Shown piece after piece: positions 12,243-60,597 of a stretch of 64,000 nucleotides of DNA. Under the pieces are notes generated by a model. That model was not told the DNA's origin. It did no database searches and saw only the letters and a program-made list of their open reading frames with translations. This stretch comes from Candidatus Izemoplasmatales bacterium (lineage in GTDB: Bacteria; Bacillota_I; Bacilli_A; Izemoplasmatales; Hujiaoplasmataceae), in assembly GCA_050949045.1 (NCBI GenBank), contig JBMNEZ010000001.1, positions 108,716-172,715 of the forward strand, in the 5' to 3' direction. How positions within the stretch are numbered: position 1 is the stretch's first letter; every line of letters begins with the position of its first letter. Position numbers and translations under genes: made by a program.

Positions 12243-13046
12243 ATGGCAAACTTGATTAAACACAAGAAAATCTTGATAATTCTCACATCATTATTCATTT
12301 TGGTGATCCTGGCGAGCCAATTTTTGCGATTGACGTTCTTTACCGATGATCTGACAAAGAAAATGGCCAATGATATTTCTATTAGGCTGGGCATGGGATT
12401 GATATTCTTGTTTATGATGTATTACATGGGGTATTGTCTTTTCAAAAAACCCGGGAAATCGTGGATACAATTACTTTTTGTTTTGATTCCGGGTTTATTA
12501 ATATCCATAAACAACTTTCCGATAAGCGCTTATTTGTCATCGCGAACCACTTTAACCGAGCCAATCCATACTGTCTTTTTTTATGCGGTTGAGTGTTTGG
12601 CAATCGGCTTTTTTGAAGAAACGGTTTTTCGAGGAGTTATTCTGTTGGTTTTGTTACAGAGGTTGCCGCAAACCAAGCGCGGAAGTTTCATGGCGATCAT
12701 TGTTTCCTCGGCTCTTTTCGGCTTGACTCATCTTTTCAATTTGTTTGTTGGGGCGGCAGTTCCAGACACGTTGATTCAAGTGGGATATTCTTTTTTGATG
12801 GGGGCTATGTGGAGTGTGATATATATTGCGACAGAAAACTTGCTGTTCCCCATCCTGCTTCATGCATCCTACAACTTTTTCGGAGAGGTGTTGTTTCGCC
12901 TGGGAACCGTATCAAACCGGTTTGATTTTCCGACCATACTGGTCACTTCCATTTTGGCAGTTTTGGCAATCATGGCATATTCGCTTGTTTTCTGTAAAAT
13001 CAAACAAGAGGATCTTGCCAATATCGGCGCAAGCGATTCCCGGTAA
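12243..13046 (+). CDS. CPBP-family (CAAX/Rce1-like, Abi) glutamic intramembrane endopeptidase
   Basis: All three signature motifs occur in order inside TM helices: FEETVFRG (EExxxR), FGLTHL (FxxxH) and HASYNF (HxxxN). About 7-8 predicted TM segments. GGAGGAAG ribosome-binding site. Confidence 0.85.
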   Translation: MANLIKHKKILIILTSLFILVILASQFLRLTFFTDDLTKKMANDISIRLGMGLIFLFMMYYMGYCLFKKPGKSWIQLLFVLIPGLLISINNFPISAYLSSRTTLTEPIHTVFFYAVECLAIGFFEETVFRGVILLVLLQRLPQTKRGSFMAIIVSSALFGLTHLFNLFVGAAVPDTLIQVGYSFLMGAMWSVIYIATENLLFPILLHASYNFFGEVLFRLGTVSNRFDFPTILVTSILAVLAIMAYSLVFCKIKQEDLANIGASDSR

Positions 13047-21824: not shown

Positions 21825-22141
21825 TTAACGGATAATGTTGGGATATTCTTTATCACAACGATATTTTACCGCGCATTAAAGAATAATCCCAACATATCCG
21901 CCTGCTTAATTGATTCTTTCTATTGTCTTAAAATCTTTATTGCTTGTTTCTTTTGTTAATCAGACTTCCTGCGTTTTAAGAATAGTACTCCGAGAGACAG
22001 CAATCCGGTAACGAGGATTCCGGTTCCGGTTAGCGAGCTTCCGCATCCGCTTATCGGTTCTGCATCTTTTCCAGCAGGACCGGCAGGACCGGCAGGACCA
22101 GCTGCACCAGCATCGCCCTTGTCGCCCTTGTCACCTTTATC
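21825..22141. repeat. Arm B of the 317-bp inverted repeat (partner 3967-4283)
   Basis: See arm A. Confidence 0.9.
21835..21895 (-). promoter_or_regulatory. Intercistronic stem-loop, identical copy of 4213-4273
   Basis: Same sequence as the module A hairpin, lying inside the inverted repeat. Confidence 0.45.
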
Positions 22142-25100
22142 ACCTTTAGCACCAGGATCACCCTTAGCACCAGGATCTCCCTTAGCACCAGGATCACCCT
22201 TAGCACCAGGATCGCCCTTGGCACCAGGATCGCCCTTAGCACCAGGATCGCCCTTTTCGCCGGCAGGGCCAGCTGGGCCTTCAATGACACCAAGATTAAC
22301 AACAGTGCCGTCTGAGAAGGTTACGAGCAATTCGCCTTCGTCGTTAATTTCCGTGGAAGCGATGCTGCCGTGTCCTACGACGATGGTGTATTCAGCGGAG
22401 CCTTTAATCCATCTATCAAATATTCCTTGTACGGTCACGGTGAAGGTTCCGATTTCGTCTGTGCTTCCAGTGATGATGCCTGTTTTTCTGTTCAATGCCA
22501 AACCTTCAGGCAGCATTCCGGAGGTAATTTGATAATCAAATATCGTTGCTTTATCTTTGGCGCCCGCAAAGCCAACATCAAGACTGACTGTTTCTTTCGC
22601 ATCGACGATGAATTTGCCGGGAGTCCATTGAGATACGATGATACCGTTTTGAGAATGACCTGCATTTGCATATTCGCTATACATGATCATGGCGCTGTAG
22701 CGAACAATGTACCATTGGTTATTGGAATAGTAAATGTCCTGCGTAGTATCCTGAGTTAGCGCTTCAGCTTCTGCAGGAACGAATTCACCGGCTGCGTGAG
22801 CCGCAATAAACCTATAATAACTTACACTGGTTTCTCCTGTAATCTTAACAAGATCGTTGATATTATAGGCTTTGGTAACGTCGAATTCTTCAAATCTGGA
22901 TGCATCCTCACCACCAAGTGTTTTTCTTCCAATATAGACGCCGCCAAGCGAGCCGGTAAGCTCATTGACATATTCCGGATCCCAACGGCCTGAATAGGTG
23001 TTGTTTGCCGGGGTGCCCAGGTTGGTCGTGTTGTTTCCGCCAGGAGCGTGGTTGTGGCCAGTGCGAAGCATCAGGTCTTCAGAAGCGACATTGGCTTGTG
23101 GCGAGTACATATCGGGATGGAAGAAGAAGTTTGGACGGCCCCATTCCTCGCGTACAAGGATGTTGCACATATTGAAGCTCACCGGGGTAGGAACTGAACC
23201 GATACGGCCAAACGCCGACATCGCACCTTCGCTATTGCCTTCTTGAATCGCAATTTGCCATGGCTTCAAGTAGATTTCTCGCAGTGCCTGTTCTGAAACC
23301 CAAGCAAAGAGGTCACCCGAGTTACGATTGGTTTCTTGGTCGTTCAAGAGCATGTGTTTCAAGTGGCTTGTTACGCCGCGATCTTGAATGCCCTTGACAA
23401 CTGCCTGAGCCATCCAGCCGGCATGGAAACCATCTTGTGAATAGTACTCGTTGTTACGACCTGAGAAAGGAGTCCGATGGAAGTTGATAGCCGGATTGAG
23501 CCATTGTGTTCTCTTGGTGTTCGTATTCAAGTTCTTTAGCAGGCCCATGTTGGCAGTGACTGCCCCTTGTTTGTAGCCAAGCTCAAGATTCCAGGTTGCT
23601 CCGATTGTCGCATTGCAGCACCAGGTGTATGTACCGTTAAAGTTAGTCGGGGAGTCAGCAATACCGCCAGTGGGAATTCCGAGGTTGGGAACAGGGTTAC
23701 CATTGTTACCGCCACTCCAGCAAGCTGTATAGAAGTCGTTCCATGTCCACTGGTTCATGAACTTAAGCCAGACTTGTCTGCCCGTCATGCCGGCAAACTT
23801 GCCTTTGGCGATCATGCTGTCGTCATTGAAAACAATGCCGTTTAACTCACCAAACAGGATCCAATCATCGCCCGCAGCTTCTTTTGCCAAAGCTTGATAA
23901 TCGGTATTTCCTACTTTGTTGGGAATTTGACTCCATCCCTCCATCATGGCGGCAGTAACGTCATAAAGTCCCGCTTGATTGCCAAGATAGCCGTTTAGAC
24001 CTGCATCGCCTATAAATAATTTATCAGAGTATACATAATCACCGGTGTTGGTCTTCGTCTGTAACTCCGCTTCCATCACATCAGCGATATAAGAGGCATG
24101 AGTTACTTCTTCAACGTTGGCATCTTCGCCTGTTTTGATAAGTCTCATCGAAGCTGAGAAGTTTTGGCAATTTGTTCTGGTGTTGAAGGAAGCGCCCACT
24201 GCAATCGCCGCTGTGACTCTGACATTGTTGGTTGTTTCGCCGCCCCAACGAGTCGATTTGTATGTTACAAAGTCGCCTACTTCATAAGCTTGAGTGGCAA
24301 TTCCGTTTGCGATCGGGCCGTTGTCTTTAAAGACAATCGTAGCGATAGTTTTGATGACTTTGTAAATTCTATTACTGTCTACCAGATAAGAATTTAGTGG
24401 AAAATCGCCGTCCACTGAAATTGGTGGAATAGCCTCGGTGTCCTTTGTGGCTTTATAAACCGCTTTACTATCTTCCACTCCAAACTCATCATTAGTTTTA
24501 TAAGCAGTTGATGTGGAGAAGTAAGCATACTCAGGCTTCCATTGATTCAGATCATAATTGTGATAATAATCCATCAAATCCGCAAATGCCTTCGTGACGA
24601 TCAAGCCACCGTCAAAGACGCCGGACAGTGTATCGACTTCCGCTTCATTAAATGGTCCCGCAGCATGATTTGCTTTAAACTTGTAATAACTTACATTAGA
24701 TGTTCCTGTCACTCCAGGTGTTACTGTGGTTATTTTGACAACATCGCCGATCACATAGGCTTTTGTAATGTCGAATTCCGAAAAGCTGGAAACAGGAACG
24801 CCGTCAACCGTGGTGACGGGAGCTTTTGGGAATGTCTGGACCATGTCAGATCTGGAAAGCAACTCTTGTTCTTTACTGAACAACTTGTCGTCATCATCAA
24901 TTACGCCGTCGCCGTTCCAATCCACATCATTATTGCGGAGAGAATTGCTTCTGCCGTTTTCTTTCGAGAAAAGGTTCACAATTTCATTGTCGGAAAAGTC
25001 GTCAAGTGCAAGTTTCGCATCGCCGTTGATTGTCAAAGTAATTTTTGCCGTAGCATTTGTGCAATGCGAGGTGTTGGAGGCAAACAGATTGTATACTCCG

Positions 25101-26566
25101 CCTTCCAACTCAAAGCCCTTGAATCCGTTGCTATTCGCATCGGCATAATCATAAGAAGCCATATCTTGCAAATTAACATCGAGTTTCATAATCTGAAATT
25201 CGCCAGGATTGAGAAGATTTGTCTTTGCATAGGCAACCAGATTTACGGAAGCTTTTTCGATTTCTCCTCTTGTATAAGGAGCCTGTGAATAGATTTCCAC
25301 TACTTCTTTGCCTGCCTCATCACCAGTATTCGTCACTTTGACGATCAGAGAAACCGTCTTAATCTTGGCAGGCGAGAATAATGAAGAACTGATATCCGCT
25401 TCATCAAGTTCACTGTGTGTGATCGACAAGATTTCCGTATTAAAGCTGGCATAAGACAAACCATAGCCGAATGGATAGACGACATTGTCGGCATACCATG
25501 CGTCTGCCTGGGCTAAGCCGCCCGGCGAGCCGGCTTTACTCAATACGCCGTCGACATAATTCAGGTTTCCAGCCAGAATTTCCGCGTAAACGGTCTCATA
25601 ATACTTGTATCCGATATAGATATCTTCGGAATAATCCACACCATGCAGAGAAATCGGGACCGGTTGGCTGCCGTCTTCTCTTAAATATTTGTTGCTGCCA
25701 GCATCATTTTGAACGTTCGCAATGGAGTTGTACCAAGTTGGATCGAGCGAAAAGTCTTTTGGCCACACGTCAACGAGTTTGCCAGAGGGGTTCCACTCGC
25801 CGCTTAACAATTTTGGAATCGCCTTGATCCCATTTGCGCCGGGACGTCCGATATACATAATCGCATCCACTTTATTGTCATTATGAAGATTGTACATCTC
25901 CATTGGAGTGGATGTATTAAGAAGAACGACGACTTTGTCGCAGAGAGCCGCGGCCTTATCGATCATAGCAATTTCCTTTGCTGTAAGCATCAGGAAGTGT
26001 TTGAGATCGTTACCGTCTGAGTTTCTAGCCAAGCGTTTATGTTGCCAACCGCCGATGTTTTCTACTGCATCATTGGCAAGTTCGCTTGTTGCTACAGCAA
26101 GGTCTGATCCTTCACCGCCACCGCGTTTGAGAACCACAACTGCCACATCAGCGAATCCTTCAACATCTTTTGAGGCTGCCCCTGCAGCAGCATCCTCATT
26201 GATCAGAGTTGGATTCACCTCAAACCCATCGGCATCAAGCACGTCGATTACTTTATGGCTACCGCCCTGTAAAGAAGCTGCCGCAGCACCGAATACCGTT
26301 ACGCCTTTGGCTTTGCTAAAAGGCAAGGCGTTATCTTTGTTCTTGAGCAGAACAGAGCCTTCTCCGGTAAGTTGAATATTCAATTCTGCAGCTGCGGCAG
26401 TAGCTTCGTCCTGCGTCTCATAGGTGGGAATCGCAATCCCGCCGTTGGCAGCGTAGGCACGAGAGCCGCTAAACAGGTATGCTGATACCGCAGTCGCAAG
26501 CGCCAAAGTCAAAACCAGCATACATTTTCCAAGTATAAACCCGTTGTTTTTGCTTCTTCCTTTCAT
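21956..26566 (-). CDS. Giant secreted GH3-family glycosidase B (1536 aa): permuted GH3 core with large inserts, He_PIG domain, collagen-like stalk, Cys-containing C-terminal sorting signal
   Basis: AGGAGG ribosome-binding site. Signal peptide ...[11 protein letters not shown]. Motif order: [26 protein letters not shown], then [12 protein letters not shown] and GKEVVEIY, then [18 protein letters not shown] and [31 protein letters not shown], (G-X-Y)24, and the terminus PISGCGSS + TM + KRRKSD. Confidence 0.85.
22064..22279 (-). repeat. Collagen-like (G-X-Y)24 tract including 6 x 18-bp GDPGAK repeats
   Basis: GPAGPAGEK(GDPGAK)x6 [27 protein letters not shown] read in frame on the minus strand. 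Confidence 0.9.
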
Positions 26567-39576: not shown

Positions 39577-42500
39577 ATGAAAAGATCGACGTTTTCAAAA
39601 ATCGAAATGAGTACAAGACGGATTGCTCTTGTCGCAGTTATGCTTTTCACTGCGCTTTGTTTTGTATTCGTTTTGATGTCATCATCTGCAGCGCAAGCCG
39701 AAGGCTTGGGTGGTACAGGCTATACAACAGCTTATTCCAGCCAAGAAGAAGTGTATGACGCTGCCAATCTGTTCAATGAACGGATGGTTGAGGAAGGAAT
39801 TGTTCTTCTAAAGAATGTTGACAATGCCCTTCCACTTGCTAAGGGCTCGATGATCAACGTGCTTGGCAAAAACTCTGCCAACATTGCGATCGGAGGAACC
39901 GGTTCAAGTACCGGATCAGGATCCGTAGAAGCCAGAAAGGCAATCAGCTTGTACCAAAGTTTGGCAAATGCGGAATTTGTACTCAACCCTGCACTCGTAG
40001 CATTCTACGAGAACAACACATTATCCGGAACCGGAAGACGAGCTCCGAATATGGGTGCAAATCTTACGGGCTTGAGCACCGGAGAAACTCCTCCGGAAAT
40101 GTATTCTGCGGAATTAAAAGCTACCTATGCTGATTATGATGATGCATCAATCGTCGTAATTACTCGTATTGGTGGTGAAGGTTATGATCTCCCAACAACG
40201 ATGCTAGCTAGTGGGCTACCAATGGCTGGATCTTTAGAAGGGGATCATTACTTAGAGCTTGACTTATATGAAAAAGCGATATTTGCTTCTTTGGAAGAGG
40301 ATCCAAGCGTTAGCAAAGTTATCGTAATCGTCAATGCCAGCCAGCAAATGGAACTTGGTTTCTTGAATGATTCCGTTAATTACTCCAAAGTCAAAGCAGC
40401 GATTTGGGTCGGTGGACCTGGACAATCAGGCGTTGCCTCTATCGGAAGAATATTGAATGGCGACGTTAATCCGTCCGGACGTCTCGTTGATACTTTTGCC
40501 GCAGACTTCTCCAAAGACCCTGTGTGGTACAACTTTGGCAATTCTGGTGGCAGGCATACGAATGGCACTCTCGACGAAGAAGGCAATTTCACCACTCCTA
40601 ATGGATATCCCCGTTTCGTAAACTATGAAGAGGGAATCTACCTAGGCTATCGTTATTGGGAAACTGCCGGCTACGATAAAAACGATAACTGGGCTTGGTA
40701 TGACCAAAATGTTGTATTCCCGCTTGGCTATGGTTTGAGCTATACCTCGTTTAGTTGGGAACTCGTTGGCGAGCCAACCATTCCTACCACTTTCACTGCG
40801 ACCGCTGAAGTTGAAGTAACCGTAAAAGTTACCAATACAGGCTCTGTTGCAGGAAAAGATGTTGTTCAACTGTATTACACAGCTCCTTACTACAATGGTG
40901 GCATTGAAAAATCGTATGTTAGATTGGCCGACTTTGCCAAAACGCCACTGCTTGAACCAGACGCCTCTGCTAATGTTACAATGAAAGTTTCACTTAAGGA
41001 CCTTGCATCATATGACTATAACGATGCCAACGGCAACGACTATAAGGGCTATGAACTTGAAGCTGGGAATTACGTTTTTAGAGTATTGAAAAACGCCAAT
41101 GCCCGTTCGGTTAACGGCGTTGCCGACTTCACGATGACTGTTCCTGAAGATAATGAAAAACCGGCAACTGCAGGCAAAACCGGAGTAATGTTTACACACG
41201 ATGAAAAGACCGGCGCCTTAATCAAAAACCTGTTCGATGATGTATCGCAAAAAGCCATTAACGGTACACTTGAAGACAAAGCGACCGAGGCTGTTAGAGA
41301 CAGTGGCGGCTTCATGAATGTCATGACACGCGCCACAGAGAGTGGCGGTCTTGCCGGTACTATCCCAACAGACTATCCGAGCAACGAAAAACGAACTGTT
41401 TCGGCGGCGTTCAGAAATTCTTATGCGACACCGTCCAATACAGCAACTCGTGACGCTGCCGACTTGGTCAGTCCATGGTACAAGGAAGAGTTTCCAACAC
41501 AAGCCGCCAACGATCAGGGCGAAGTGACAGTCTTCTTAAAAGATTTGATTGGAAAAGATTTCGATGATCCTCTTTGGGACGCTTTCCTCAATCAGATGAC
41601 ATATTACGAAATGGCATATCTTATCGGTCACGGAGCTTTCCATACATACCCAATCGAAAGATTAGGAAAACCATGGTCTGTCGAAATTGACGGACCGGTT
41701 GGATTGGTTCCAAGACAGGTAAACGGACCATTGATGGATATCAATAATCATGTATCATGCGTATATGCGACACAACCCGTAGTCGCAGCAACCTGGAACA
41801 AGGAATTGGTCAAAGAATATGGCCAAATGACTGGAGAAGAATCAATTTGGGGAAATACCAACTATGCATATTCAGGTATTTATGGCCCCGGATTGAACAT
41901 TCACCGTTCACCGTTCTCAGGACGTAACTTCGAGTATTACAGTGAAGATGGTGTTTTATCAGGAAAAATGGCCGGAGCTTACTGCTTAGGAGCGTACGAG
42001 AAAGGCTTGTACACAATGATGAAACACTATGTGCTCAATGACCAAGAAACGAACCGAAACGGTATCCAAACTTGGGCAGATGAGCAGACAATGCGTGAAA
42101 TCTACTTCTTGCCTTTTGAAAAAGCTATTAAAGATGGAAATTCAAGAGGAGCGATGGCTGCTTATAATAGTATTGGCAAGACCTGGACCGGTGCAAGCTA
42201 TGCCTTGATGACCGACTTGACTCGTAATGAGTGGGGATTCGAGGGAATGATTATCACTGACTGGGGTTCATATTCAGCTACGACAAACAACTGGATGATT
42301 CGTGCCGGAACCGATTTGTTGCTTGGCGGAAGTAGGGAAGGCACTCTGATTTTTGAAGGAGCCGATCTCACGCCCACACATGCTTGGGCGCTCAGAAGAG
42401 CAACCAAAGCCATAATGTTCACCGTTGCCAACAGCAACGCAATGATACCGAGACTACAGTATGCTGCCGGAGCAGCTCCCAGTCCTTTCCGAACCGGGAT

Positions 42501-44775
42501 TGAGTATTCGATGGATGCTTCCGGAGTCTCCGGAAACTATGATTTCGGCGAATTTGAAGTAACGTATTCAGCAGATGAGCGTTTGCCTGAAGGATTGGAA
42601 ATCGATCCTGAGACTGGCCTCATAACTGGTATCATTGCGGCAAGCGGAGCCTCACAGTCCTACACGTTTACTGTCACCGGCAGTGTTCCTGCGGGTACAG
42701 CGCTTACCGATGCCGTTTCTCGAGAATTCACCATTAATCAGGCAAGCATCACAGAAATCCCCGCCTTGGCTAATGGCAGGGTCGGGGTACCATATTTCTC
42801 CGATGCAATTCAAATATCATTAAACTTGGAGATTGACCCAAGTGAAATCACATATCAGTTGGATCCGGGTCTAAGGCAAGGTTGGACATGGATAAGACGT
42901 GGTTCAGCAGCGCTTCCTCAAGGACTAGTGATCAATAATGACGGAACGATTACCGGTACACCGACTCAGGCAATTACTAGAACGGTTACTTTCCTAGTTT
43001 CTGCGCCCGGTTTCGTAGACACATTGATTACTCGCACTATAACTATCTTGCCAGCAATTCCGGTGATCACATTTGGCGATGCAATATTACCGGCGGGAGA
43101 AGTGGGCTCTCAATACGAAGCACAACTCGTTGCCAGTGGCGCGGAGGGCATCACCTTTGCTTCAGAAAATCTCCCTGCAGGATTAACGCTTGCCGCTAAC
43201 GGCTTGATCTCTGGAACTCCAACAGTCGTAGGAACTTATCTCTTTGAAGTAACCGCTTCAGCGGAAGGCGCAACATCAACTGTTGCTTCAATCGCTCTTA
43301 ACGTAGCCGAGGAAGCTGAAATAATCCTTCCTGCCATCGTATTCAACGACAGGAAGCTTGATGCTGGAAAAGTCGGTGTTGCATACAGCGCGACTCTTAC
43401 TGCTAGCGGAGCCGATGGCATCACCTTTGCTTCAGAAAATCTCCCTGCAGGGTTAACGCTTGCCGCTAACGGCTCGATCTCTGGCACTCCAACTGAAGCC
43501 GGAACTTATCTCTTTAAAGTAATTGCTTCAGCGGAAGGAGCAACATCAACTGTTGCTTCAATCGTTCTTAGCGTAGCCGAGGAAGATGAAGTAATCCTTC
43601 CTGTCATCGTATTCAGCGACAGGAAGCTCGACTCTGGAAAAGTCGGTGTTGCATACAGCGCGACTCTCACTGCTAGCGGAGCCACAGGCATCACCTTTGC
43701 TTCAGAAAATCTCCCTGCAGGGTTAACGCTCGCCGCTAACGGAAAACTTTCTGGTACTCCGACTCAAGCTGGAACATACCTTATTACAGTGACTGCTTCT
43801 GCAACTGGTGCGCAATCGGCAACTGCTTCAATCGTTCTTAGCGTAGCCGAGGAAGATGAAGTAATCCTTCCTATCATCGTATTCAGCGACAGGAAGCTCG
43901 ACGCTGGAAAAGTCGGTGTTGCATACAGCGCGACTCTCACTGCTAGCGGAGCCACAGGCATCACCTTTGCTTCAGAAAATCTACCTGCAGGATTAACGCT
44001 CGCCGCTAACGGAAAACTTTCTGGTACTCCGACTCAAGCTGGAATATACCTTATTACAGTGACTGCTTCTGCAACGGGCGCGCAATCGACAACTGCTTCA
44101 ATCGTTCTTAGCGTAGCCGAGGAAGATGAAGTAATCCTTCCTGTCATCGTATTCAACGACAGGAAGCTCGATGCTGGAAAAGTCGGTGTTGCATACAACG
44201 CGACTCTCACTGCTAGTGGAGCCACAGGCATCACCTTTGCTTCAGAAAATCTCCCTGCAGGATTAACGCTCGCCGCTAACGGAAAACTTTCTGGTACTCC
44301 GACTCAAGCTGGAACATACCTTATTACAGTGACTGCTTCTGCAACGGGCGCGCAATCGACAACTGCTTCAATCGTGCTTAGTGTTTCCCCCGCTGCTGCA
44401 ACCGAGGCACCGGCAATTTCATTCAATAGTGCATTGTTGGCTTCTGGAACTGTAGGAACAGCATACAGCGCGACTCTCACTGCTAGCGGAGCCGAAGGCA
44501 TCACCTTTGCCTCAAGCGACCTACCTGCCGGCTTGACTCTCAACGAAGACGGATCTATCTCTGGCACTCCGACTCAAGCTGGAACATACTTGTTCACAGT
44601 TACGGCCTCTGCTACTGGAGCACAATCGGCTACAGCATCAATTGCGATTCACATTGCATCAGTAGCCGCTCCGATAACTGGTTGCGCATCAGCTTTGACC
44701 GTCTCGACGATCATCATGACATTGTTGACGTCAATGGTAGCTGGAGTCTTCATCTTTATCAGGAAACGTCAATAA
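39577..44775 (+). CDS. Giant secreted GH3-family glycosidase C (1732 aa): permuted GH3 core, ~8 He_PIG-type Ig domains, Cys-containing C-terminal sorting signal
   Basis: AAGGAGG ribosome-binding site. Signal peptide ...SSSAAQA/EG. Motif order: LLKNVDNALPL, IGGEGYDLP, NPSGRLV, then FPLGYGLSYTSF and GKDVVQLY, then [48 protein letters not shown]. Ig array, then the terminus PITGCASA + TM + RKRQ. Confidence 0.9.
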   Translation: MKRSTFSKIEMSTRRIALVAVMLFTALCFVFVLMSSSAAQAEGLGGTGYTTAYSSQEEVYDAANLFNERMVEEGIVLLKNVDNALPLAKGSMINVLGKNSANIAIGGTGSSTGSGSVEARKAISLYQSLANAEFVLNPALVAFYENNTLSGTGRRAPNMGANLTGLSTGETPPEMYSAELKATYADYDDASIVVITRIGGEGYDLPTTMLASGLPMAGSLEGDHYLELDLYEKAIFASLEEDPSVSKVIVIVNASQQMELGFLNDSVNYSKVKAAIWVGGPGQSGVASIGRILNGDVNPSGRLVDTFAADFSKDPVWYNFGNSGGRHTNGTLDEEGNFTTPNGYPRFVNYEEGIYLGYRYWETAGYDKNDNWAWYDQNVVFPLGYGLSYTSFSWELVGEPTIPTTFTATAEVEVTVKVTNTGSVAGKDVVQLYYTAPYYNGGIEKSYVRLADFAKTPLLEPDASANVTMKVSLKDLASYDYNDANGNDYKGYELEAGNYVFRVLKNANARSVNGVADFTMTVPEDNEKPATAGKTGVMFTHDEKTGALIKNLFDDVSQKAINGTLEDKATEAVRDSGGFMNVMTRATESGGLAGTIPTDYPSNEKRTVSAAFRNSYATPSNTATRDAADLVSPWYKEEFPTQAANDQGEVTVFLKDLIGKDFDDPLWDAFLNQMTYYEMAYLIGHGAFHTYPIERLGKPWSVEIDGPVGLVPRQVNGPLMDINNHVSCVYATQPVVAATWNKELVKEYGQMTGEESIWGNTNYAYSGIYGPGLNIHRSPFSGRNFEYYSEDGVLSGKMAGAYCLGAYEKGLYTMMKHYVLNDQETNRNGIQTWADEQTMREIYFLPFEKAIKDGNSRGAMAAYNSIGKTWTGASYALMTDLTRNEWGFEGMIITDWGSYSATTNNWMIRAGTDLLLGGSREGTLIFEGADLTPTHAWALRRATKAIMFTVANSNAMIPRLQYAAGAAPSPFRTGIEYSMDASGVSGNYDFGEFEVTYSADERLPEGLEIDPETGLITGIIAASGASQSYTFTVTGSVPAGTALTDAVSREFTINQASITEIPALANGRVGVPYFSDAIQISLNLEIDPSEITYQLDPGLRQGWTWIRRGSAALPQGLVINNDGTITGTPTQAITRTVTFLVSAPGFVDTLITRTITILPAIPVITFGDAILPAGEVGSQYEAQLVASGAEGITFASENLPAGLTLAANGLISGTPTVVGTYLFEVTASAEGATSTVASIALNVAEEAEIILPAIVFNDRKLDAGKVGVAYSATLTASGADGITFASENLPAGLTLAANGSISGTPTEAGTYLFKVIASAEGATSTVASIVLSVAEEDEVILPVIVFSDRKLDSGKVGVAYSATLTASGATGITFASENLPAGLTLAANGKLSGTPTQAGTYLITVTASATGAQSATASIVLSVAEEDEVILPIIVFSDRKLDAGKVGVAYSATLTASGATGITFASENLPAGLTLAANGKLSGTPTQAGIYLITVTASATGAQSTTASIVLSVAEEDEVILPVIVFNDRKLDAGKVGVAYNATLTASGATGITFASENLPAGLTLAANGKLSGTPTQAGTYLITVTASATGAQSTTASIVLSVSPAAATEAPAISFNSALLASGTVGTAYSATLTASGAEGITFASSDLPAGLTLNEDGSISGTPTQAGTYLFTVTASATGAQSATASIAIHIASVAAPITGCASALTVSTIIMTLLTSMVAGVFIFIRKRQ
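43051..44670 (+). repeat. 6 x 270-bp in-frame tandem repeat (90-aa He_PIG/putative-Ig units)
   Basis: CATCACCTTTGCTTCAGAAAATCTCCCTGCAGG recurs at 43149, 43419, 43689, 43959 and 44229, with a diverged copy at 44499. Units 3-5 are almost identical at the DNA level. Confidence 0.9.
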
Positions 44776-44824
44776 TTGCATCAAACTCATTTACACAGAT
44801 AGATTAACTTGATATAATTCGTTT

Positions 44825-44861
44825 GGAACGCTATAGGCAGATTACTGTCTATAGCGTTTCC
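44825..44861 (+). terminator. Intercistronic stem-loop between giant GH3 C and lipoprotein C (possible partial terminator)
   Basis: GGAACGCTATAG, 12-nt loop, CTATAGCGTTTCC. Followed by GACGATTATTTTT. Confidence 0.55.
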
Positions 44862-44915
44862 GACGATTATTTTTACTATCTATCTTAGCTGTAATCACAA
44901 TTTTGGAGGAAATCC

Positions 44916-46082
44916 ATGTTAAAAAAACTACTTATTCTACTGACTATCTTCGTATCAACAACAATACTAATAGCGTGTGTTGATACAACGACAACTGTGG
45001 GTATGGTTAAAACAACAACGACTGTTTCTGGTTCCACAAGTACTTCTGTTACCAATACTCCCAAAACAACTACTTCCGCGATCTCCCCTTCCACAACAAC
45101 CACTTCCATCAGCACCGCCCCTCCCGGGACAACCACTTCCATCAGCACCGCCCCTCCCGGGACAACCATTCCCATTAGTACCACTCTTCCCGTAACAACC
45201 ACTGACGGCACGACTTCGATCAATACCGGACCGGCGACATTGAATTATCAAGGCGCCGCATTGGCCAATGGTACAGTTGGGATACAATACTCTGCTAACA
45301 TCAATACCGCAACCGGCGCTAGTGGAATCACATACTCTTTGAAGTCGGGAAGTTTGCTTCCAGACGGATTGTCGCTTGCAGGAGGTATTATCACAGGGAT
45401 TCCGACTGTCGCAGGGACAAAGCAATTTGTAATTGTTGCCGACGCGAGCAACGCGGTTGCCCCAGTAGAAGCGACTTTCACGATTGTAATCGAAGAAGAA
45501 GAGCCTACTGGTCCAAAAACATACATTTTTGAAGCCGAATATGTTGATTTCACCGATGTTTGGGGTTCAGGGTGGTCAAATACCCAAACCGAATGGGGGA
45601 TGGTTGCCGGCGATGGGGTCACAACACCGGTAAGCAATGGGATGTATGTCGCCTACTTTGTTCCCCCGGCGGGATCTTTAAAATTCCCCTTCACTTCTGA
45701 TGCAGCGGGGACAGGTAAACTAACCTTCTCTATGGTCTCGGAGTATGTTAAAAACTGGTTTGGCGAATTTGATGCGATTCATCTGAATCCCGAGATCATG
45801 AAACTCAAGATTAATGGCACCGAGATAAGCTACGAGGTATTTGTATTGGGTGTTAACGGACCTACAGAAGCCTTCAAAGAATACGTCTTTTTGGAAGAAT
45901 TTGCCATTCGTCAAGGTGAAAACATGATTGAGATTATCATGGAATCATCCAACGATTATTTCCCCGGAAGAGTTGGGGGAGGCCCAAACGTTGACTACAT
46001 GAAGATCGAATCTGAATTGAACTTGGTTATGAAAAAAACTTGTTCGACAGTCGATGAAGTCATCTTACGACGAGGTTATTAA
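44916..46082 (+). CDS. Surface lipoprotein C: Thr-rich linker, He_PIG-type Ig domain, C-terminal CBM6/35-like domain
   Basis: GGAGGA ribosome-binding site. MLKKLLILLTIFVSTTILIAC lipobox. T/S/P-rich linker. LPDGLSLAGGIITGIPT. C-terminal YIFEAEYVDF...KINGTE...IRQGENMIEI...VDYMKI. Confidence 0.8.
   Translation: MLKKLLILLTIFVSTTILIACVDTTTTVGMVKTTTTVSGSTSTSVTNTPKTTTSAISPSTTTTSISTAPPGTTTSISTAPPGTTIPISTTLPVTTTDGTTSINTGPATLNYQGAALANGTVGIQYSANINTATGASGITYSLKSGSLLPDGLSLAGGIITGIPTVAGTKQFVIVADASNAVAPVEATFTIVIEEEEPTGPKTYIFEAEYVDFTDVWGSGWSNTQTEWGMVAGDGVTTPVSNGMYVAYFVPPAGSLKFPFTSDAAGTGKLTFSMVSEYVKNWFGEFDAIHLNPEIMKLKINGTEISYEVFVLGVNGPTEAFKEYVFLEEFAIRQGENMIEIIMESSNDYFPGRVGGGPNVDYMKIESELNLVMKKTCSTVDEVILRRGY
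45096..45161 (+). repeat. 2 x 33-bp perfect direct repeat in the Thr-rich linker
   Basis: ACAACCACTTCCATCAGCACCGCCCCTCCCGGG occurs twice in tandem (TTTSISTAPPG x2). Confidence 0.9.
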
Positions 46083-46094
46083 TAATTATCCAAA

Positions 46095-46129
46095 ATACTA
46101 CACAACGCATTTTTTGTTGTGTAGTATTG
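46095..46129 (+). terminator. Rho-independent terminator after lipoprotein C
   Basis: AATACTACACAAC, loop gcatttttt, GTTGTGTAGTATT, then GATTTTGG. Confidence 0.7.
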
Positions 46130-46388
46130 ATTTTGGCATTGAAAAGGGCAAAAAATAGCATTTGTTTTGTAATGTCTTTACATAATTAATAACTTGATTG
46201 AAAGTACTTGTTTTCTAATAGTCTATCTTTCAAACCAATCAGCATTTTGCCTGATAGGTTTCAACACATCATATAAACTAGCAATCGATAATTAATTAAA
46301 TAATTATCTTGTTGCCGTTATTTTGTGAGGATTTCTAAGCGTATCCAATTCATATGCTTGGGTGAGATGGCAAATATTGTACTGTAAT

Positions 46389-46417
46389 TTGACAAGAGCC
46401 TTTGATTGCACGAATAT
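46389..46417 (+). promoter_or_regulatory. Candidate sigma-A promoter for GH3 C'
   Basis: TTGACA, 17-nt spacer, GAATAT. It would give a ~340-nt leader. Confidence 0.35.
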
Positions 46418-46640
46418 TTTTCTATTCAGAATTGCTTTGCGACTTAAAAATACTTGGAATCAATGGTTTTCTTTATGCAATTTAGTTGTTTTTGATCCGA
46501 ACTTGTTTTTAAGGCTGAGCATCATAGTATAAATCTGTCAGCCATTCAGCGGCTATGTCTTGTGCTCGGCCTGGATAACCGTAATTGAAGTTTCATATTC
46601 AAAATCATGTAGGTATTAATCAGCATAATAACTTTTATGA

Positions 46641-46658
46641 TTTGAATTATAATTCAAA
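46641..46658. promoter_or_regulatory. 18-bp perfect palindrome TTTGAATTATAATTCAAA (candidate operator)
   Basis: The sequence is self-complementary, verified base by base. It lies 100 nt upstream of the GH3 C' start codon. Confidence 0.35.
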
Positions 46659-46758
46659 CTAGGACAGTCGATTTTTCTTTATTCAGTATTAAATTTAGGT
46701 TAAATATATAATATAAATTTGACAATATTTTCCAATGATTTACAGAGGGGGAAAAAAG

Positions 46759-49716
46759 ATGAAGATAATATGGAAAAACTTAAGCACAAGAATATGGCTA
46801 ATCATATCAGCAATACTTTCTTTCTTAATGCTCATAACCATAATAGCTGTGCAAATACCGTTTTTGAGTCAAACGATGAATACATTGTTTGGCGGAGAAA
46901 GAAGAATCATTACCAGCCCTTCCGGCGAGAGTTATATGTATTATGAATCTGATTACTTTTCGAAAGCGTTGACCTTGCAAGAGGCCAATAAACTTAACGA
47001 ACAAATCGTCGGAGAAGGCGTAGTGCTTCTAAAAAATGATAATAACGCGCTTCCAATTACCGGCTCTAAAGATATTAGTGTTTTTGGCAAGAATTCAGTC
47101 AATCTAGTTTATGGCGGATCGGGATCCGGTGAAAAAAGCGATATGCTCGATACGGATTTATATAGCAGTTTAGAAGACGCGGGATTTACGACAAATCCTA
47201 TTTTAAAAGCGTTTTATAAAGATAACTCCAAGTCTGGTAACGGGCGACCAGCCAATCCTTCAATCGGCGCTCAGTTAACCGGATTTCCAACTGGAGAAAC
47301 ACCAATTTCAAGTTATACACAGGATGTCAGGAACAGTTATAACCAATATGATGACGCCGCGATTGTCGTTTTTTCGAGAATCGGCGGTGAGGGCTATGAT
47401 CTTCCGAGAACGATGCAAGTAAGCTTTACTGATCCTTCTGCAGTAGAAGGGGCTTCCAGCGCCCAGGATCACTATCTTCAGCTAGACGCCAATGAAAAGG
47501 CGCTTCTTGAAGAAGTAAAAGCAAACTTCAGCAAAGTAATCGTTTTGATCAACAGCGCTACGACGATGGAACTGGGCGATCTTCAAGACGATGATGAAAT
47601 CGACAGTATTCTTTGGATTGCCACAACCGGAGGAACGGGAATCAATGCAGTAGGTGATGTGTTGAGCGGCAAGATCAACCCTTCCGGTCGTACTGTCGCG
47701 ACATATGCAAGAAACTTTAGAAACGATCCGACTTGGCATAACTTCGCATATAACGGTGTTAAAAACGGCAACCGTTACGTGGTTGGCGAAATTAATAGAC
47801 CGTTCTATTTCGTTGATTATGAGGAAGGCATCTATGTCGGGTACCGTTATTATGAAACCAGAGGATTTGAAGAGATAAAGGCCAATCCAGCTAGCACGTG
47901 GTACGAAGACAATGTCGTTTATCCTTTTGGTTTCGGATTGAGTTATACATCGTTTAAATGGGAAATAAGCTCCACATCATACCCTGATGAGTCCGTCTTG
48001 ACTAAAAACGGAGTTATTGAAGTGACAGTGAAAGTTAAAAACACAGGCACTGTAAAAGGCAAAGAAGTTGTCCAATTATATTACACGGCGCCATATACGA
48101 ATGGCGGCATCGAAAAAGCCCATGTCGTGTTGGGGGCATTTGCCAAGACCAATGTGCTAAATCCTAACCAAAGCCAAGAACTAAAATTGAGCCTAAAAGT
48201 CATGGATATGGCATCTTATGATTATAATGATGCCAATAACAACGGATTTAAAGGTTATGAACTTGAAGGCGGGAACTATGAGATCAAAATTATGAAAAAC
48301 GCTCATGAACTGGTTGATTCTCTGACATACTCGGTTCCTGCAGGTGGGTTCAAAGTCGACTCTGATACCGAGTATGGAGTTCAGCCTGAAAATCGTTTTG
48401 ATGATGTCAGTTCCAAGATTAATAGTGTTAATGTCGAGCAAACCGGCGGAACGATGACACTTATGTCAAGGGCGAATTTCGCTGGCACGATGCCTTCGAC
48501 ACCGACTCTCGCCGATCGTACAGTTAGTTCCGGATTCATTGACAGTCTAGCCTATCCCCAACAACCATGGACTGTGGATCAGGGCAAGCCGTATTACACA
48601 GCTAATGCTCCGATTCAGGCAAGTTCGGAACTATCGGAAAACGAAGTCAATTTAATGCTTTACGACATGATCGGCGTCGCTTACGATGATCCTTCATGGG
48701 ACACTTTCCTCAACCAATTGACGGTCGGGCAGATGGCTACTCTGATTGGCAGCGGCAACTTCCACACCGAGCCGCTTGTCAACCTCGGAAAACCGCGGAC
48801 AACGGATCCCGACGGACCTGTCGGGTTCACCAATTTCATGGAAATCGGCGAAGCCACCGTCTATGACACCTGTTTTTATGCCAGTCCCTCGATTGTCGCG
48901 GCCACTTGGAACGTCGAACTCGCTTTTGAACAAGGCAAGATGGTCGGCAACGAAGGCATTTGGGGGAATGACCGGGGCGATCAGGCTCCTTATTCGGGCT
49001 GGTACGCTCCCGCTGTCAATATCCACCGGACTCCCTTCTCGGGTAGGAACTGGGAATATTACAGTGAAGATGGATTCTTGTCGGGTAAAATGGCAGCCAA
49101 TGTGATTTTGGGAGCGAAGGAAAAAGGGGTCTACACCTTTATCAAACACTTTGCCGTCAACGATCAGGAGACGAACCGCGATTCGAACGGCTTGTTGACA
49201 TGGCTTGACGAGCAGACGATGCGCGAGATCTATTTGAAACCGTTCGAGATGGCTGTCAAGGAAGGCAAGACGACCGCGATTATGTCATCATTTAACAGAC
49301 TCGGCAAGGTTTGGGCAGGCGGAAGCTACGAATTGCTGACGGAAGTGTTGCGGAACGAATGGGGATTTAAAGGCACGGTTATCACCGACTACAACGTTTA
49401 TGCCCATATGCCCGCAGACCAGATGATTCGTGCCGGTGGCGATTTGAACCTGATCCAAGACAAGCGTCCGACGACATCAAACGAAGCTTTGACCAGCACT
49501 CAGATATCATTGATGCGCCAAGCTTCAAAGAACATCCTGTTCACCGTAGTCAACAGCAACGCGATGAACGGCTTGGGGGCCAACGCCACCATCAGATACA
49601 TTTTGCCGCGTTGGAAAGTTGCGATGATCATCATCGAAAGTTCAATTGCCGGGTTGATTATAATCTCCGGGGCCATCTTGATTACTAGTGTTTACAAAAA
49701 GAAACCGATTGTTTAA
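46759..49716 (+). CDS. Doubly membrane-anchored permuted GH3 glycosidase C'
   Basis: I moved the start to MKIIWKNLSTRIWLIISAILSFLMLITIIAV (GAGGGGG ribosome-binding site). Motif order: LLKNDNNALPI, IGGEGYDLP, NPSGRTV, then YPFGFGLSYTSF and GKEVVQLY, then [49 protein letters not shown]-terminal PRWKVAMIIIESSIAGLIIISGAILITSVYKKK. Confidence 0.85.
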   Translation: MKIIWKNLSTRIWLIISAILSFLMLITIIAVQIPFLSQTMNTLFGGERRIITSPSGESYMYYESDYFSKALTLQEANKLNEQIVGEGVVLLKNDNNALPITGSKDISVFGKNSVNLVYGGSGSGEKSDMLDTDLYSSLEDAGFTTNPILKAFYKDNSKSGNGRPANPSIGAQLTGFPTGETPISSYTQDVRNSYNQYDDAAIVVFSRIGGEGYDLPRTMQVSFTDPSAVEGASSAQDHYLQLDANEKALLEEVKANFSKVIVLINSATTMELGDLQDDDEIDSILWIATTGGTGINAVGDVLSGKINPSGRTVATYARNFRNDPTWHNFAYNGVKNGNRYVVGEINRPFYFVDYEEGIYVGYRYYETRGFEEIKANPASTWYEDNVVYPFGFGLSYTSFKWEISSTSYPDESVLTKNGVIEVTVKVKNTGTVKGKEVVQLYYTAPYTNGGIEKAHVVLGAFAKTNVLNPNQSQELKLSLKVMDMASYDYNDANNNGFKGYELEGGNYEIKIMKNAHELVDSLTYSVPAGGFKVDSDTEYGVQPENRFDDVSSKINSVNVEQTGGTMTLMSRANFAGTMPSTPTLADRTVSSGFIDSLAYPQQPWTVDQGKPYYTANAPIQASSELSENEVNLMLYDMIGVAYDDPSWDTFLNQLTVGQMATLIGSGNFHTEPLVNLGKPRTTDPDGPVGFTNFMEIGEATVYDTCFYASPSIVAATWNVELAFEQGKMVGNEGIWGNDRGDQAPYSGWYAPAVNIHRTPFSGRNWEYYSEDGFLSGKMAANVILGAKEKGVYTFIKHFAVNDQETNRDSNGLLTWLDEQTMREIYLKPFEMAVKEGKTTAIMSSFNRLGKVWAGGSYELLTEVLRNEWGFKGTVITDYNVYAHMPADQMIRAGGDLNLIQDKRPTTSNEALTSTQISLMRQASKNILFTVVNSNAMNGLGANATIRYILPRWKVAMIIIESSIAGLIIISGAILITSVYKKKPIV

Positions 49717-50156: not shown

Positions 50157-50882
50157 TTAACTTTCCTTTTTTTCCAGTTCTTCTTTTTTCTCTTTACTTT
50201 GTGGGAATATGACTTTGAAGATTGGGAAGAATACCCAGAAGGAGATCGCGGAGTAGATGATCATGGTAATGAAGTCGGCGATCGTTTCACCGGTTGCGCC
50301 CCAACCCCAAATATTCATAAGCAAATTGTAGATCGGTACCGTGTACAACCCTCTGGCGGCCGAGGCAAAGATGGTTATCGCCACATAGGCGACAGCGTAC
50401 CAAAAAGCGGCCTTCCAGGGATTGCCATCGGATTTGAATGTGATGTTTCTTTGGGCAAAGAAGTTGATGACCTGGGCAATTAACAAAGTGATTTGAACAG
50501 CGAGGAAAAAGGCGAGACCGCCACCACCGCCGCTTGCCAGAGTCCCGGCTTTAAAATCAAAGATAAAGTAGTCCGACCCATCAATGTTCTTCCCTAGTTG
50601 CCAGATTTGGAAATTAATGTTGATAAGATTGGTCTTCGCAAAAATGGCTTTCAGGATCGGCATCAAGATCATCTGTAAAACGGTAACGCCGTTACTTAAC
50701 ATGAAAAACACAAGAAATTGAGCTACGTTCGGGAATCTCTTTTTGAACTTTTTCCAGAGATTGACCCACCATTGGACAAAACGGGATTGACCTAACTTTC
50801 TAAAAAATTCTTTGACTTTACTTGGTTTTTCTTCTTGTGTGACCGGAGCTTCAACTTCGGCCATTTCTTTTTCTTCACTCAT
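50157..50882 (-). CDS. GtrA-like polytopic membrane protein with an acidic N-terminal extension
   Basis: 4-5 TM helices. GtrA-type block LLIAQVINFFAQRNITFKS. The start overlaps the GH3 stop (ATGA). Confidence 0.55.
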   Translation of the reverse strand: MSEEKEMAEVEAPVTQEEKPSKVKEFFRKLGQSRFVQWWVNLWKKFKKRFPNVAQFLVFFMLSNGVTVLQMILMPILKAIFAKTNLININFQIWQLGKNIDGSDYFIFDFKAGTLASGGGGGLAFFLAVQITLLIAQVINFFAQRNITFKSDGNPWKAAFWYAVAYVAITIFASAARGLYTVPIYNLLMNIWGWGATGETIADFITMIIYSAISFWVFFPIFKVIFPQSKEKKEELEKKES

Positions 50883-53345: not shown

Positions 53346-53414
53346 ATCTGTATGAAATTTTGAAAAACTAGCGACAATGTCTTTATTGACTTAAGCGCTA
53401 ACAACTATATTAAC

Positions 53415-56922: not shown

Positions 56923-56925
56923 TGA

Positions 56926-59598: not shown

Positions 59599-59643
59599 TC
59601 AATTTCGTGGAATTTCTTCGATGAACACGAAAATGATTCTCAT
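59599..59643 (-). pseudogene. 14-codon vestige of a LytTR response-regulator 5' end immediately after lgt
   Basis: ATGAGAATCATTTTCGTGTTCATCGAAGAAATTCC... (MRIIFVFIEEIPRN*) aligns with the RR2 start ATGAGAATCAAGGTCGCAATCGTCGAAGACAATCC (MRIKVAIVEDNP). It has the same ATGA overlap with the lgt stop as seen at 55542-55545. Confidence 0.6.
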
Positions 59644-60455
59644 TGTTCACTTTTAGAAATAGGCAAGTCAGTTGCCTTCTTGTTTGTTTTTGCTTTGCAT
59701 AGCAAAATGATGCCAGTTATCATGAGTAAGAAACTCAAATACTGTGAAGGGGTTGGAAAAACATTGTGTTCAGTGGTGATGAAGCCAAAGATACTGCCGC
59801 GGTCGTCTCCGCGGATCAGTTCCAACAATATCCTCCAGCCGCCGTAGGCGATAAGATATGTTTCCAGTTGATAACCCCTCAAGCATTTGAGATTGGCAAG
59901 CACGAAAAACAAAACGAACAGAAATAACGCTTCGAACAACTGAACCGGAAAGAGAGGAATTCCAGGAAAGGCATCATGAGCATGGCCGTGGGGAAAGACC
60001 ACACCGAGAAAGGAATCAGTCGGAATTCCGTAACAACAGCCGGCTAGGAAACAACCGATCCGACCAAAGGCATGCGCAAGGACAACACCGATGATCACAG
60101 TGTCCATAATGCTTTTTATGCCTCTGTTATCAGCTTTATAGACGAACTTCAAGAGAACAAGCAAACAGGCGACGCCGCCGATAAGGCCACCGAGGAAAGA
60201 GATCGTTCCGAAAGACCACTTGCCCTCTTTGATGGAATGGAATATCCCATCGAACAAGAATGAGGAGAACAAAGCGAATAACAAAGAGACAATAAGCAAC
60301 ACCAATAGTTTATTGGATTGCTTTCTATTCAGCCCGTCATGATTCTCGAGTCTTCTGGCAACGAAAACGAGCATTAACAATACTCCCACACAAATCATCA
60401 AGTCATATAGAGGAATAGTATAGCCGAACACTTCCGGCAACAAGAATGGATACAT
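59640..60455 (-). CDS. lgt: Prolipoprotein diacylglyceryl transferase
   Basis: I moved the start to MYPFLLPEVFGY (AAGGAGGGG 4 nt upstream). Lgt-type blocks GRIGCFLAGCCYG, FPVQLFEA and YGGWRILLELIRGD. Confidence 0.8.
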   Translation of the reverse strand: MYPFLLPEVFGYTIPLYDLMICVGVLLMLVFVARRLENHDGLNRKQSNKLLVLLIVSLLFALFSSFLFDGIFHSIKEGKWSFGTISFLGGLIGGVACLLVLLKFVYKADNRGIKSIMDTVIIGVVLAHAFGRIGCFLAGCCYGIPTDSFLGVVFPHGHAHDAFPGIPLFPVQLFEALFLFVLFFVLANLKCLRGYQLETYLIAYGGWRILLELIRGDDRGSIFGFITTEHNVFPTPSQYLSFLLMITGIILLCKAKTNKKATDLPISKSEQ

Positions 60456-60597
60456 GGGACCCCTCCTTATCAAATATTGTATCATTTGTTGGCATATTCA
60501 CGCACTCTCTTTAATGAATTAGGTATGAAAATATTGTTTGAGAAGGATTTTCATCATCTCATCGACAGAATCAATATAGATGTATGATAAAATATAA

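Follow-up and report, generated by a model that had tools for sequence, protein, structure and literature searches.

A cysteine-containing C-terminal tail of exported Bacillota proteins as a probable membrane-anchoring signal

Background

C-terminal sorting signals determine bacterial surface display, and each new signal of this kind has led to a new enzyme, namely sortase, exosortase, archaeosortase, rhombosortase and myxosortase. Four tripartite signals that contain a cysteine (Cys) have been described (MYXO-, JDVT-, Synerg- and CGP-CTERM), and all of them are tied to CPBP proteases (Haft 2023). According to Haft, a signature placed directly at the helix accompanies enzymes that are embedded deeply in the membrane; LPXTG, by contrast, has a spacer. 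In the two-step model of MYXO-CTERM processing, cleavage by MrtX requires the Cys, and an Lgt-like acyltransferase is proposed, as a postulate, for the first step; which enzyme modifies the Cys was stated as an open question in the same work (Guo, Haft & Wall 2025). Here, we describe a Cys-containing tail at the end of a giant, exported sugar-cleaving enzyme (giant C), which is encoded in a 64,000-nucleotide stretch of contig JBMNEZ010000001.1 (positions 108,716 to 172,715), referred to as the window.

The most fitting reading of the tail, hereafter the GC tail, is that of a tripartite sorting signal with a Cys, a Bacillota variant of the MYXO-CTERM class that falls outside every catalogued family. 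It is new, being absent from the domain libraries and the literature searched, and that literature places none of the four described Cys-containing signals in Bacillota. We regard it as very likely that the tail is a conserved Cys-dependent sorting or anchoring module, and we favor, with some reserve, its membership in a modular C-terminal sorting and anchoring domain of exported Bacillota surface proteins. This widespread tail probably marks many secreted proteins of gut-type Bacillota for membrane anchoring, through its Cys.

Many glycan-degrading enzymes and adhesin-like proteins of uncultured Bacillota carry the GC tail, and the carriers include an order, described as wall-less, where sortase and outer-membrane routes would not apply. 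GenBank labels the carriers just 'Ig domain-containing' or 'GH3', because Pfam and NCBIfam (release 20) hold no model of the tail. Such a model would improve the prediction of surface proteomes from metagenomes and allow phylogenetic profiling for a partner enzyme. Genomes of 1.5 Mb in which a CPBP gene and an atypical Lgt gene lie beside the substrates offer a compact setting for the question of Cys modification.

Results and discussion

The GC tails of three giant proteins

Giant C (39577..44775, plus strand; 1,732 residues) is composed of a signal peptide, a GH3 enzyme, eight He_PIG stalk repeats and the GC tail. Its N-terminus carries a cleavable-looking signal peptide (..SSSAAQA/EG), and the order of its GH3 domains is permuted (GH3_C, Fn3-like, GH3_N). 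The tail spans 44668..44772 on the plus strand, 105 bases that encode the final 35 residues of the enzyme (APITGCASALTVSTIIMTLLTSMVAGVFIFIRKRQ), and the stop codon follows at 44773-44775. It is made up of a T-G-C-A-S signature (44677-44691) with its Cys codon at 44683-44685, an uncharged helix (44692-44760; ALTVSTIIMTLLTSMVAGVFIFI) and a basic end, RKRQ (44761-44772). Two JGI metagenome contigs encode a protein identical to giant C, and more distant orthologues (56-72% identity) retain [T]GC[G/S]S, the helix and a basic RKRH. Against a profile hidden Markov model (HMM) of 98 tails, the tail of giant C scores 36.4 bits (E 1.2e-9).

Two further giants in the window end in the same way. Giant A (16..4152, plus strand) comprises GH3, He_PIG, a collagen-like stalk and a GC tail at 4051..4149 (plus strand; Cys codon 4063-4065; HMM 32.9 bits); its stop-to-stop open reading frame (ORF) begins at base 1, so that its N-terminus is cut by the window edge and its true start lies upstream of the window. 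Giant B (21956..26566, minus strand) has a signal peptide (..SRAYA/AN), GH3, He_PIG, collagen-like repeats and a GC tail at 21959..22057 (minus strand; Cys codon 22045-22043; HMM 31.1 bits). Both proteins finish with KDAEP[V/I] and a further 31 residues, and the tails with their Cys motif are near-identical. At the DNA level the two gene ends are identical over the last ~190-210 nucleotides bar one base and divergent beyond, and this near-identity of about 200 nucleotides suggests gene conversion of the stalk end together with the tail. The stalk right before the tails of A and B consists of collagen-like Gly-X-Y repeats (GDK, GAK/GDP, GPA) at 3900-4050 (plus strand) and 22060-22330 (minus strand). 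Collagen-like stalks likewise lie upstream of the GC tails of four proteins found elsewhere (P0112, P0140, P0154 and P0159).

The original prediction held that the tail of giant C has no DNA similarity to the tail shared by A and B, and that it nonetheless preserves P-[IV]-[ST]-G-C-[GA]-S-x-L-T, the helix and the basic end, as expected of a recognition motif rather than a copied tail. Both observations stand. In ungapped comparison, 6-16 of 30 nucleotides match per block between the A and C tails, which is background, motif codons aside, and the ten-position pattern, the helix and the basic end are common to all three tails. When all six frames of the window were scanned for P.[STA]G followed by a hydrophobic stretch and a stop, three sites only came up, all of them real gene ends, and the 98-tail HMM matched three ORFs only, namely A, B and C (E 1e-9 to 6e-8). 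The three-tail feature is thus confirmed as an observation far beyond chance.

A family of C-terminal tails

A profile built from 22 tails was run with hmmsearch (HMMER, exhaustive) against 1.84 billion (1.84e9) representative proteins at E<=1e-3. It returned 79 proteins, the best at 1.5e-10, and 77 of these were new. Further matches that keep the Cys were therefore found, as had been anticipated: in 76 of the 77, G-C-[G/N]-[S/G], a helix and a cluster of Lys or Arg stand at the extreme C-terminus, the sole exception being a low-complexity false match. Homologues of giant C gave a similar picture. About 28-30 of the 120 best full-length homologues end in G-C-G-S/G, a helix and a basic end, and the long stalked proteins among the 120 mostly finish with x-G-C-G-S/G, one helix and a basic end (for example P0001, AVTGCGSALNASTFVMSLMTVMAAGVFLFLRKRH, and P0026, KSGCGSVIEAGFGITLGFAAVAALAVVAVTKKSRNK). 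Variants include a doubled GCGSCGS in P0036, a motif placed after collagen-like repeats in P0112, and a high-G+C 'KKGCGSVIG' type. The GH3 paralogues of ~1,000 residues in the homologue set have plain, Trp-flanked C-terminal helices without the motif. A tblastn search of plasmids with the consensus tail gave no match. Searches of a word-indexed protein database with the tail alone were close to empty, one yielding no candidate and another two matches, which carries no message on rarity given the outcome of the exhaustive search.

A sequence logo of the 98 tails, anchored on the Cys (position 0), redefines the signature. Gly at -1 and Cys at 0 are present in 98/98. Position +1 is Gly in 89/98, and the Ala of giant C is a rare variant (3/98); +2 is Ser in 74 and Gly in 22 (together 96/98); and +4 is Ile in 68, Leu in 18 and Val in 8 (together 94/98). 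Positions +3 (S/V/A/T) and +5 (G/D/A/N) are looser. Upstream of the Gly, -3 is mostly Lys or Glu (K/E/D in 62/98), -2 is K/G/T/S (T/S in 34/98), and Pro occupies -4 in only 9/98. The longer pattern drawn from the three window tails thus fails as a general motif, and its L-T is not conserved either. Its Pro, [IV], [ST] and L-T are lineage noise, and G-C-G-S-x-I is the signature. What survives of the predicted recognition motif is a modular, conserved signal on dozens of unrelated exported proteins; the residues assigned to it needed correction.

The signature adjoins the helix without a spacer, and 21-28 uncharged residues (median 24) separate the Cys from the first Lys or Arg, a stretch long enough for one membrane span. 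Asp and Glu are absent from the eight residues after the Cys in 82/96 tails. Lys and Arg dominate positions +24 to +28, with Lys more frequent than Arg, and the protein ends 26-38 residues (median 30) after the Cys. The 30 residues upstream of the tail are linkers rich in E/T/A/P/D. The resulting order is an acidic Pro/Thr-rich linker, [K/E]-x-G-C-G-[S/G]-x-[I/L], 21-28 uncharged residues rich in small side chains, three to five Lys or Arg, and the end of the protein. Alignments of the tails contain no conserved stretch of 7-10 columns.

The proteins that carry the tail are otherwise unrelated. They include GH3, GH42 with F5/8-C, rhamnosidase, GDSL lipase, DJ-1/PfpI, CBM9, Flg_new, Big_2/3/9, He_PIG and collagen-like repeat proteins, and a single locus of 24 kb (L065) holds genes for four different GC-tail proteins. 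An N-terminal, signal-peptide-like segment is present in 36/38 full-length members. The suggestion that the tail would be enriched on very large surface enzymes was borne out in part, as the carriers range from ~350 to 1,700 residues and include non-enzymatic Ig-like repeat proteins.

The G+C content of GC-tail loci ranges from 34% to 57%, with carriers outside the window's lineage at 52-57%, and several lineages are therefore involved. Homologues carry the names Candidatus Izemoplasmatales or Clostridiales. Proteins listed by NCBI under 'Candidatus Izemoplasmatales bacterium' share 79-81% identity with the 993-residue GH3 protein of the window, and the 90% cluster whose tail is closest to that of giant C contains three GenBank Candidatus Izemoplasmatales entries annotated only as Ig-domain or GH3. 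Among the GTDB representatives, which do not include the window's genome, the best match reaches 41% identity. Syntenic relatives are located on contigs of 1.56 and 1.63 Mb. Izemoplasma is described as free-living and wall-less (PMC8397711), a description of the lineage rather than of this genome. Since close homologues are named in an order described as wall-less, sorting to a cell wall is unlikely.

Comparison with described sorting signals

Twenty-three tails and ten full-length proteins were scanned against Pfam and NCBIfam (release 20), and no model covers the tail signature; the matches in those scans were sub-threshold only, to LPXTG_anchor, Rumino_NPXTG, Gram_pos_anchor and, once, MYXO-CTERM. 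The last of these, TIGR03382, reached 12.7 bits against a cut-off of 15.85 on 1/23 tails, and TIGR03901 was never reported. The JDVT-, Synerg- and CGP-CTERM models gave no match on the 23 tails at E<=10.

The closest described system is MYXO-CTERM with its protease MrtX (TIGR03901 / TIGR03382 'GC_trans_RRR'). In both, a G-C signature (GCGC there; GCGS here, sometimes GCxGCGS) abuts an uncharged helix that is followed by a basic cluster, and in both the passengers are diverse, Sec-exported surface proteins with many substrates per genome. MYXO-CTERM is, however, restricted to Myxococcota with a cognate myxosortase, whereas the GC tail occurs in Bacillota, including an order described as wall-less, with no outer membrane or type II secretion step and with a Lys-rich end; the CPBP protein of the window scores only 23 against a Mrt_core cut-off of 100. 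The Synerg-, JDVT- and CGP-CTERM signals (CPBP enzymes MrtS, MrtJ and MrtA) share with the GC tail an invariant single Cys at the helix boundary and the lack of a spacer. CGP-CTERM further resembles it in belonging to cells without an outer membrane and in its Thr/Ser-rich upstream linker. The GC tail differs from these three in that it has no DP motif, no invariant intramembrane Pro and no C-G-P, and in its taxa.

Likeness to other systems is more partial. LPXTG proteins handled by sortase are also exported surface proteins with a stalk or linker, a helix and a basic end, and the collagen-like stalks recall the streptococcal Scl proteins; the GC tail differs in its invariant Cys, in lacking both an LPXTG-type motif and a spacer, and in belonging to a lineage described as wall-less. 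In the N-terminal lipoprotein pathway (lipobox, Lgt, Lsp), too, an invariant Cys follows a small residue where a single helix meets the outer face, and in the GC tail this helix is possibly removed. The lipobox has the form [LVI][ASTVI][GAS]C and closes an N-terminal signal peptide; the three window tails read [IV]-[ST]-G-C in its manner, and the window also encodes ordinary lipoproteins and an Lgt-family protein. The topology is nevertheless a mirror image, with the Cys before a C-terminal helix, and position -3 is mostly K/E/D instead of L/V/I; the local Lgt-family protein also lacks the His of HGGL and the N146/N149/E151 network. The lipobox reading of [IV]-[ST]-G-C was rejected on account of the charged -3 residue in most family members. 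Finally, processing of CAAX proteins by Rce1, eukaryotic and archaeal, resembles the proposed scheme in placing a lipid on a Cys of the C-terminal region first, followed by distal CPBP cleavage. There, however, three residues follow the Cys of a cytosolic protein, whereas in the GC tail ~30 residues that include a membrane span follow an extracytoplasmic Cys.

Proposed mechanism and a candidate protease

With MYXO-CTERM and the remaining Cys-containing signals as models, giant C might be processed as follows. Once exported by Sec, the protein would stay in the membrane through its tail, whose Cys would face outward and whose basic end would lie on the inner side. An enzyme embedded in the membrane would recognize G-C-G-S where the helix begins, and the Cys thiol would become lipid-modified. 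An intramembrane protease would then cut off the helix and the basic end distal to the Cys, and the giant stalked glycosidase would stay tethered via its C-terminal lipid. This specific route, lipidation plus CPBP cleavage, is possible but falls short of probable. Candidates in the window are a CPBP protein (12243-13046) for the cleavage and, more speculatively, an Lgt-family protein (59640-60485) for the modification of the Cys. The presence of a CPBP gene and an atypical Lgt gene beside the substrates fits the two-step model.

The candidate tail-cleaving enzyme (12243..13046, plus strand) is a CPBP/Rce1-like glutamic intramembrane protease of 267 residues with ~6 predicted transmembrane segments. 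It matches PF02517 at 66.4 bits (cut-off 22.4) and contains EETVFR, FGLTH and HASYN, in agreement with the EExxxR, FxxxH and HxxxN motifs of the family. It is the only membrane protease in the window. Its score against the NCBIfam model of MroQ is 25.6 (cut-off 270), and no sequence relative of it was found in the PDB.

Orthologues of the CPBP gene were found at metagenome loci (L073 among them) and are 41-55% identical to one another; their flanking genes are 63-87% identical to those of the window. At L071 and L073 the CPBP orthologue immediately follows, in the same orientation, a cassette of giant C (with GC tail), a lipoprotein and a GH3 protein. At all of L067-L071 and L073 it adjoins a convergent GT2 gene. 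Beyond GT2, where the locus extends, lie genes for a GtrA-like protein, a cytoplasmic GH3, an Lgt-like protein and UDP-galactopyranose mutase (GLF); the Lgt-like and GLF genes are present at L068, L069 and L071, where the Lgt-like gene is thus syntenic with CPBP. The same block, GtrA-like/GH3/GT2/Lgt-like/GLF, occurs in the window at 50157-61752. The association between CPBP and the tail is weak and is limited to the window's lineage. Upstream of CPBP at L068-L070 (for example L068 4199-5408), the cassette GH3 of ~1,000 residues is split into four ORFs (150, 55, 66 and 128 residues), which looks like a decaying pseudogene with an intact CPBP gene downstream.

A divergent Lgt-family protein

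The Lgt-family protein (59640..60485, minus strand; 281 residues) matches PF01790 at 115 bits and stays below the cut-offs of the NCBIfam equivalogs (118/334 and 71/118.9). Aligned to Escherichia coli Lgt (5AZB), it keeps Y26, R143, G154, E202, Y235, R239, E243 and R246, and with them the catalytic R143/R239 pair. LGGL replaces HGGL (H103 to L), and GRIGCFLAGCCYG replaces the signature GRLGNFINGELWG, with N146 changed to C, N149 to A and E151 to C. This variant motif, LGGL together with GRIGCFLAGCCYG, is strictly conserved in the orthologues (L068, L071). In Lgt itself, HGGL is essential and is the proposed site for the lipobox peptide, and E151 is a ligand of the phosphatidylglycerol head group (PMC4728403).

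In a bolder reading, the GC tail, the CPBP and the divergent Lgt (the LGGL / GRIGCFxAGCCYG variant) would make up an entire 'C-terminal lipoprotein' pathway of wall-less Bacillota. Here the Cys of a substrate with inverted topology would receive a lipid or glycolipid from the altered Lgt paralogue, and the CPBP would then remove the helix. We consider this reading unlikely. If it were true, the locus would reveal which acyltransferase fills the gap in the MYXO-CTERM/myxosortase model, and bacteria without a wall or an outer membrane would use a glycosylphosphatidylinositol-like C-terminal lipid anchor for giant stalked enzymes.

Within the conserved block that holds the Lgt-like gene, the window encodes a GtrA-like protein (50157-50882), a GT2 of the GtrB/CsbB-like type (55885-56922) and a UDP-galactopyranose mutase (60598-61752). 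The GtrA-like/GT2/mutase block suggests that this lineage makes a membrane glycolipid or surface glycan containing galactofuranose.

Evidence against a processed sorting signal

Several points weigh against reading the GC tail as a member of a processed sorting and anchoring domain. Both processing steps, cleavage and lipidation, are proposed by analogy. The basic end is Lys-rich, as opposed to Arg-rich in the known families. The homologues P0037, P0045 and P0087 have plain tails without the Cys, and a helix alone can therefore anchor these enzymes. The invariance of G-C among the profile matches is partly circular, since the profile rewards G-C; independent evidence for a signal is the C-terminal position and the diversity of the passengers.

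The candidate enzymes invite similar caution. The CPBP protein is generic and falls far under all myxosortase cut-offs (MrtJ 28/75; Mrt_core, NF040914, 23/100), and CPBP genes are frequent, with a mean above 3.2 in genomes that have at least one (Haft). The window's CPBP could instead be a peptide-processing partner of the adjacent AgrC/AgrA-like systems, in the manner of MroQ, or have an immunity function. The genome may encode another Lgt besides the Lgt-family protein, or this protein may be its sole Lgt. At L063/L075, L065, L072 and L074, neither a CPBP nor an Lgt homologue was found up to 10 kb from the GC-tail genes; the CPBP synteny thus does not extend beyond one shallow clade and a single genomic island.

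Alternative explanations

The strongest competitor to the favored sorting domain is a permanent single-pass anchor. The tail would remain uncut, and the Cys would serve reversible acylation, a covalent bond to a surface glycolipid or polymer, or an inter-chain disulfide that fastens collagen-like trimers. Plain tails of helix and basic end are indeed found on paralogous GH3 proteins in the window and in the family, the three window paralogues of ~1,000 residues included, and some homologues have kept the helix and lost the Cys. The confinement of the protease link to one clade also agrees with an uncut anchor, as does the position of the Cys a few residues past Gly-X-Y repeats in A, B, P0112, P0154 and P0140. 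The collagen-like part is, however, absent from most GC-tail proteins, and extracellular disulfides are unusual in strict anaerobes.

What separates GC tails from plain anchors is their composition and shape: G-C-G-S-x-I, a fixed length, a helix rich in small residues and a very short cytoplasmic end. Within the same GH3 family, the fraction of G/A/S/T in the helix is 0.45 for GC tails and 0.31 for plain anchors (p=6e-8), and the cytoplasmic ends measure 7 residues as against 15.5 (p=8e-10). These distinguishing features match those of known cleaved sorting signals, and we judge the permanent anchor to be rather unlikely.

A second alternative keeps the favored reading of a processed signal and assigns it to an enzyme other than CPBP: a rhomboid (in the manner of rhombosortase), an exosortase- or archaeosortase-like enzyme, or an undescribed class. 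Rhomboids use helix-destabilizing sites, which the Gly/Ser-rich start of the helix resembles, as it does GlyGly-CTERM, and the weakness of the CPBP link leaves room for such an enzyme. Against it, the window ORFs of at least 150 residues hold no rhomboid, sortase or exosortase domain, and the NCBIfam GlyGly-CTERM model gave no match on the 23 tails. CPBP enzymes are the partners of every one of the four known Cys-containing signals, and the window's only membrane protease is a CPBP, which follows the cassette in two related genomes. A non-CPBP enzyme therefore appears improbable.

A variant sortase signal, in which A-P-I-T-G and E-P-[VI]-S-G would be cut as xPx[TS]G and linked to the wall, is hardly credible: P-x-[TS]-G stands in the three window tails and LPXTG_anchor (TIGR01167) scores 14.4-16.6 bits on some tails, within an overall range of 7.5-16.6, against a cut-off of 15.9, yet the Pro and the T/S are not conserved in the family, the TIGR01167 match in A and B is restricted to the helix and the basic end (model positions 12-32), the motif-helix spacer of LPXTG is missing, the window ORFs of at least 150 residues include no sortase gene, and the lineage is named in a wall-less order. 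The sortase reading of P-x-[TS]-G was accordingly rejected, with its motif unconserved and its spacer absent. Pfam Gram_pos_anchor scored at most 16.7 bits against a cut-off of 20.

Cassettes and other genes of the window

The giants belong to three paralogous three-gene cassettes at 16-8769 (plus strand), 26566-16016 (minus strand) and 39577-49716 (plus strand). Each consists of a giant with signal peptide, GH3, stalk and GC tail; an N-terminal lipoprotein; and a GH3 protein of ~1,000 residues with N- and C-terminal transmembrane anchors. The cassette lipoproteins have a C-terminal beta domain in common and contain repeats of the Flg_new or He_PIG-like kind. In cassette C, the genes downstream of giant C (44916..49716, plus strand) encode the lipoprotein (44916-46082; lipobox LIAC) and the 993-residue GH3 (46735-49716), which has N- and C-terminal transmembrane anchors and no Cys motif. 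Other N-terminal lipoboxes in the window are found at 19685-21856 and probably at 4332-5810. The cassette order recurs at L030, L063, L064, L071, L073 and L074 (34-57% G+C), and the cassette looks like a conserved surface glycan-degrading module with three modes of membrane attachment.

Two AgrC-like (HATPase_c_5) and AgrA-like (LytTR) two-component pairs, at 33964-35954 and 53483-55545 (both minus strand), lie amid the glycosidase genes. No AgrB or AgrD was recognized with these pairs, and the same pairing stands beside the cassettes at L063, L071 and L074.

A direct duplication of ~2.5 kb (98.8% identity) is present at 50904-53425 and 56983-59508. Each copy holds a GH3 gene without a signal peptide (816 and 841 residues), whose product is presumably cytoplasmic, and between the copies lie an AgrC/AgrA-like kinase-regulator pair and the GT2 gene. 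L068, L071 and L073 show one copy in the stretch available, and the duplication is either recent or an assembly artifact.

Two membrane proteins, one of 472 residues with 11 transmembrane segments (9312-10730, plus strand) and one of 178 residues with four (19092-19628, minus strand), have no Pfam or NCBIfam match. The gene of the latter overlaps the start of the GH3 gene (16016-19114) inside cassette B.

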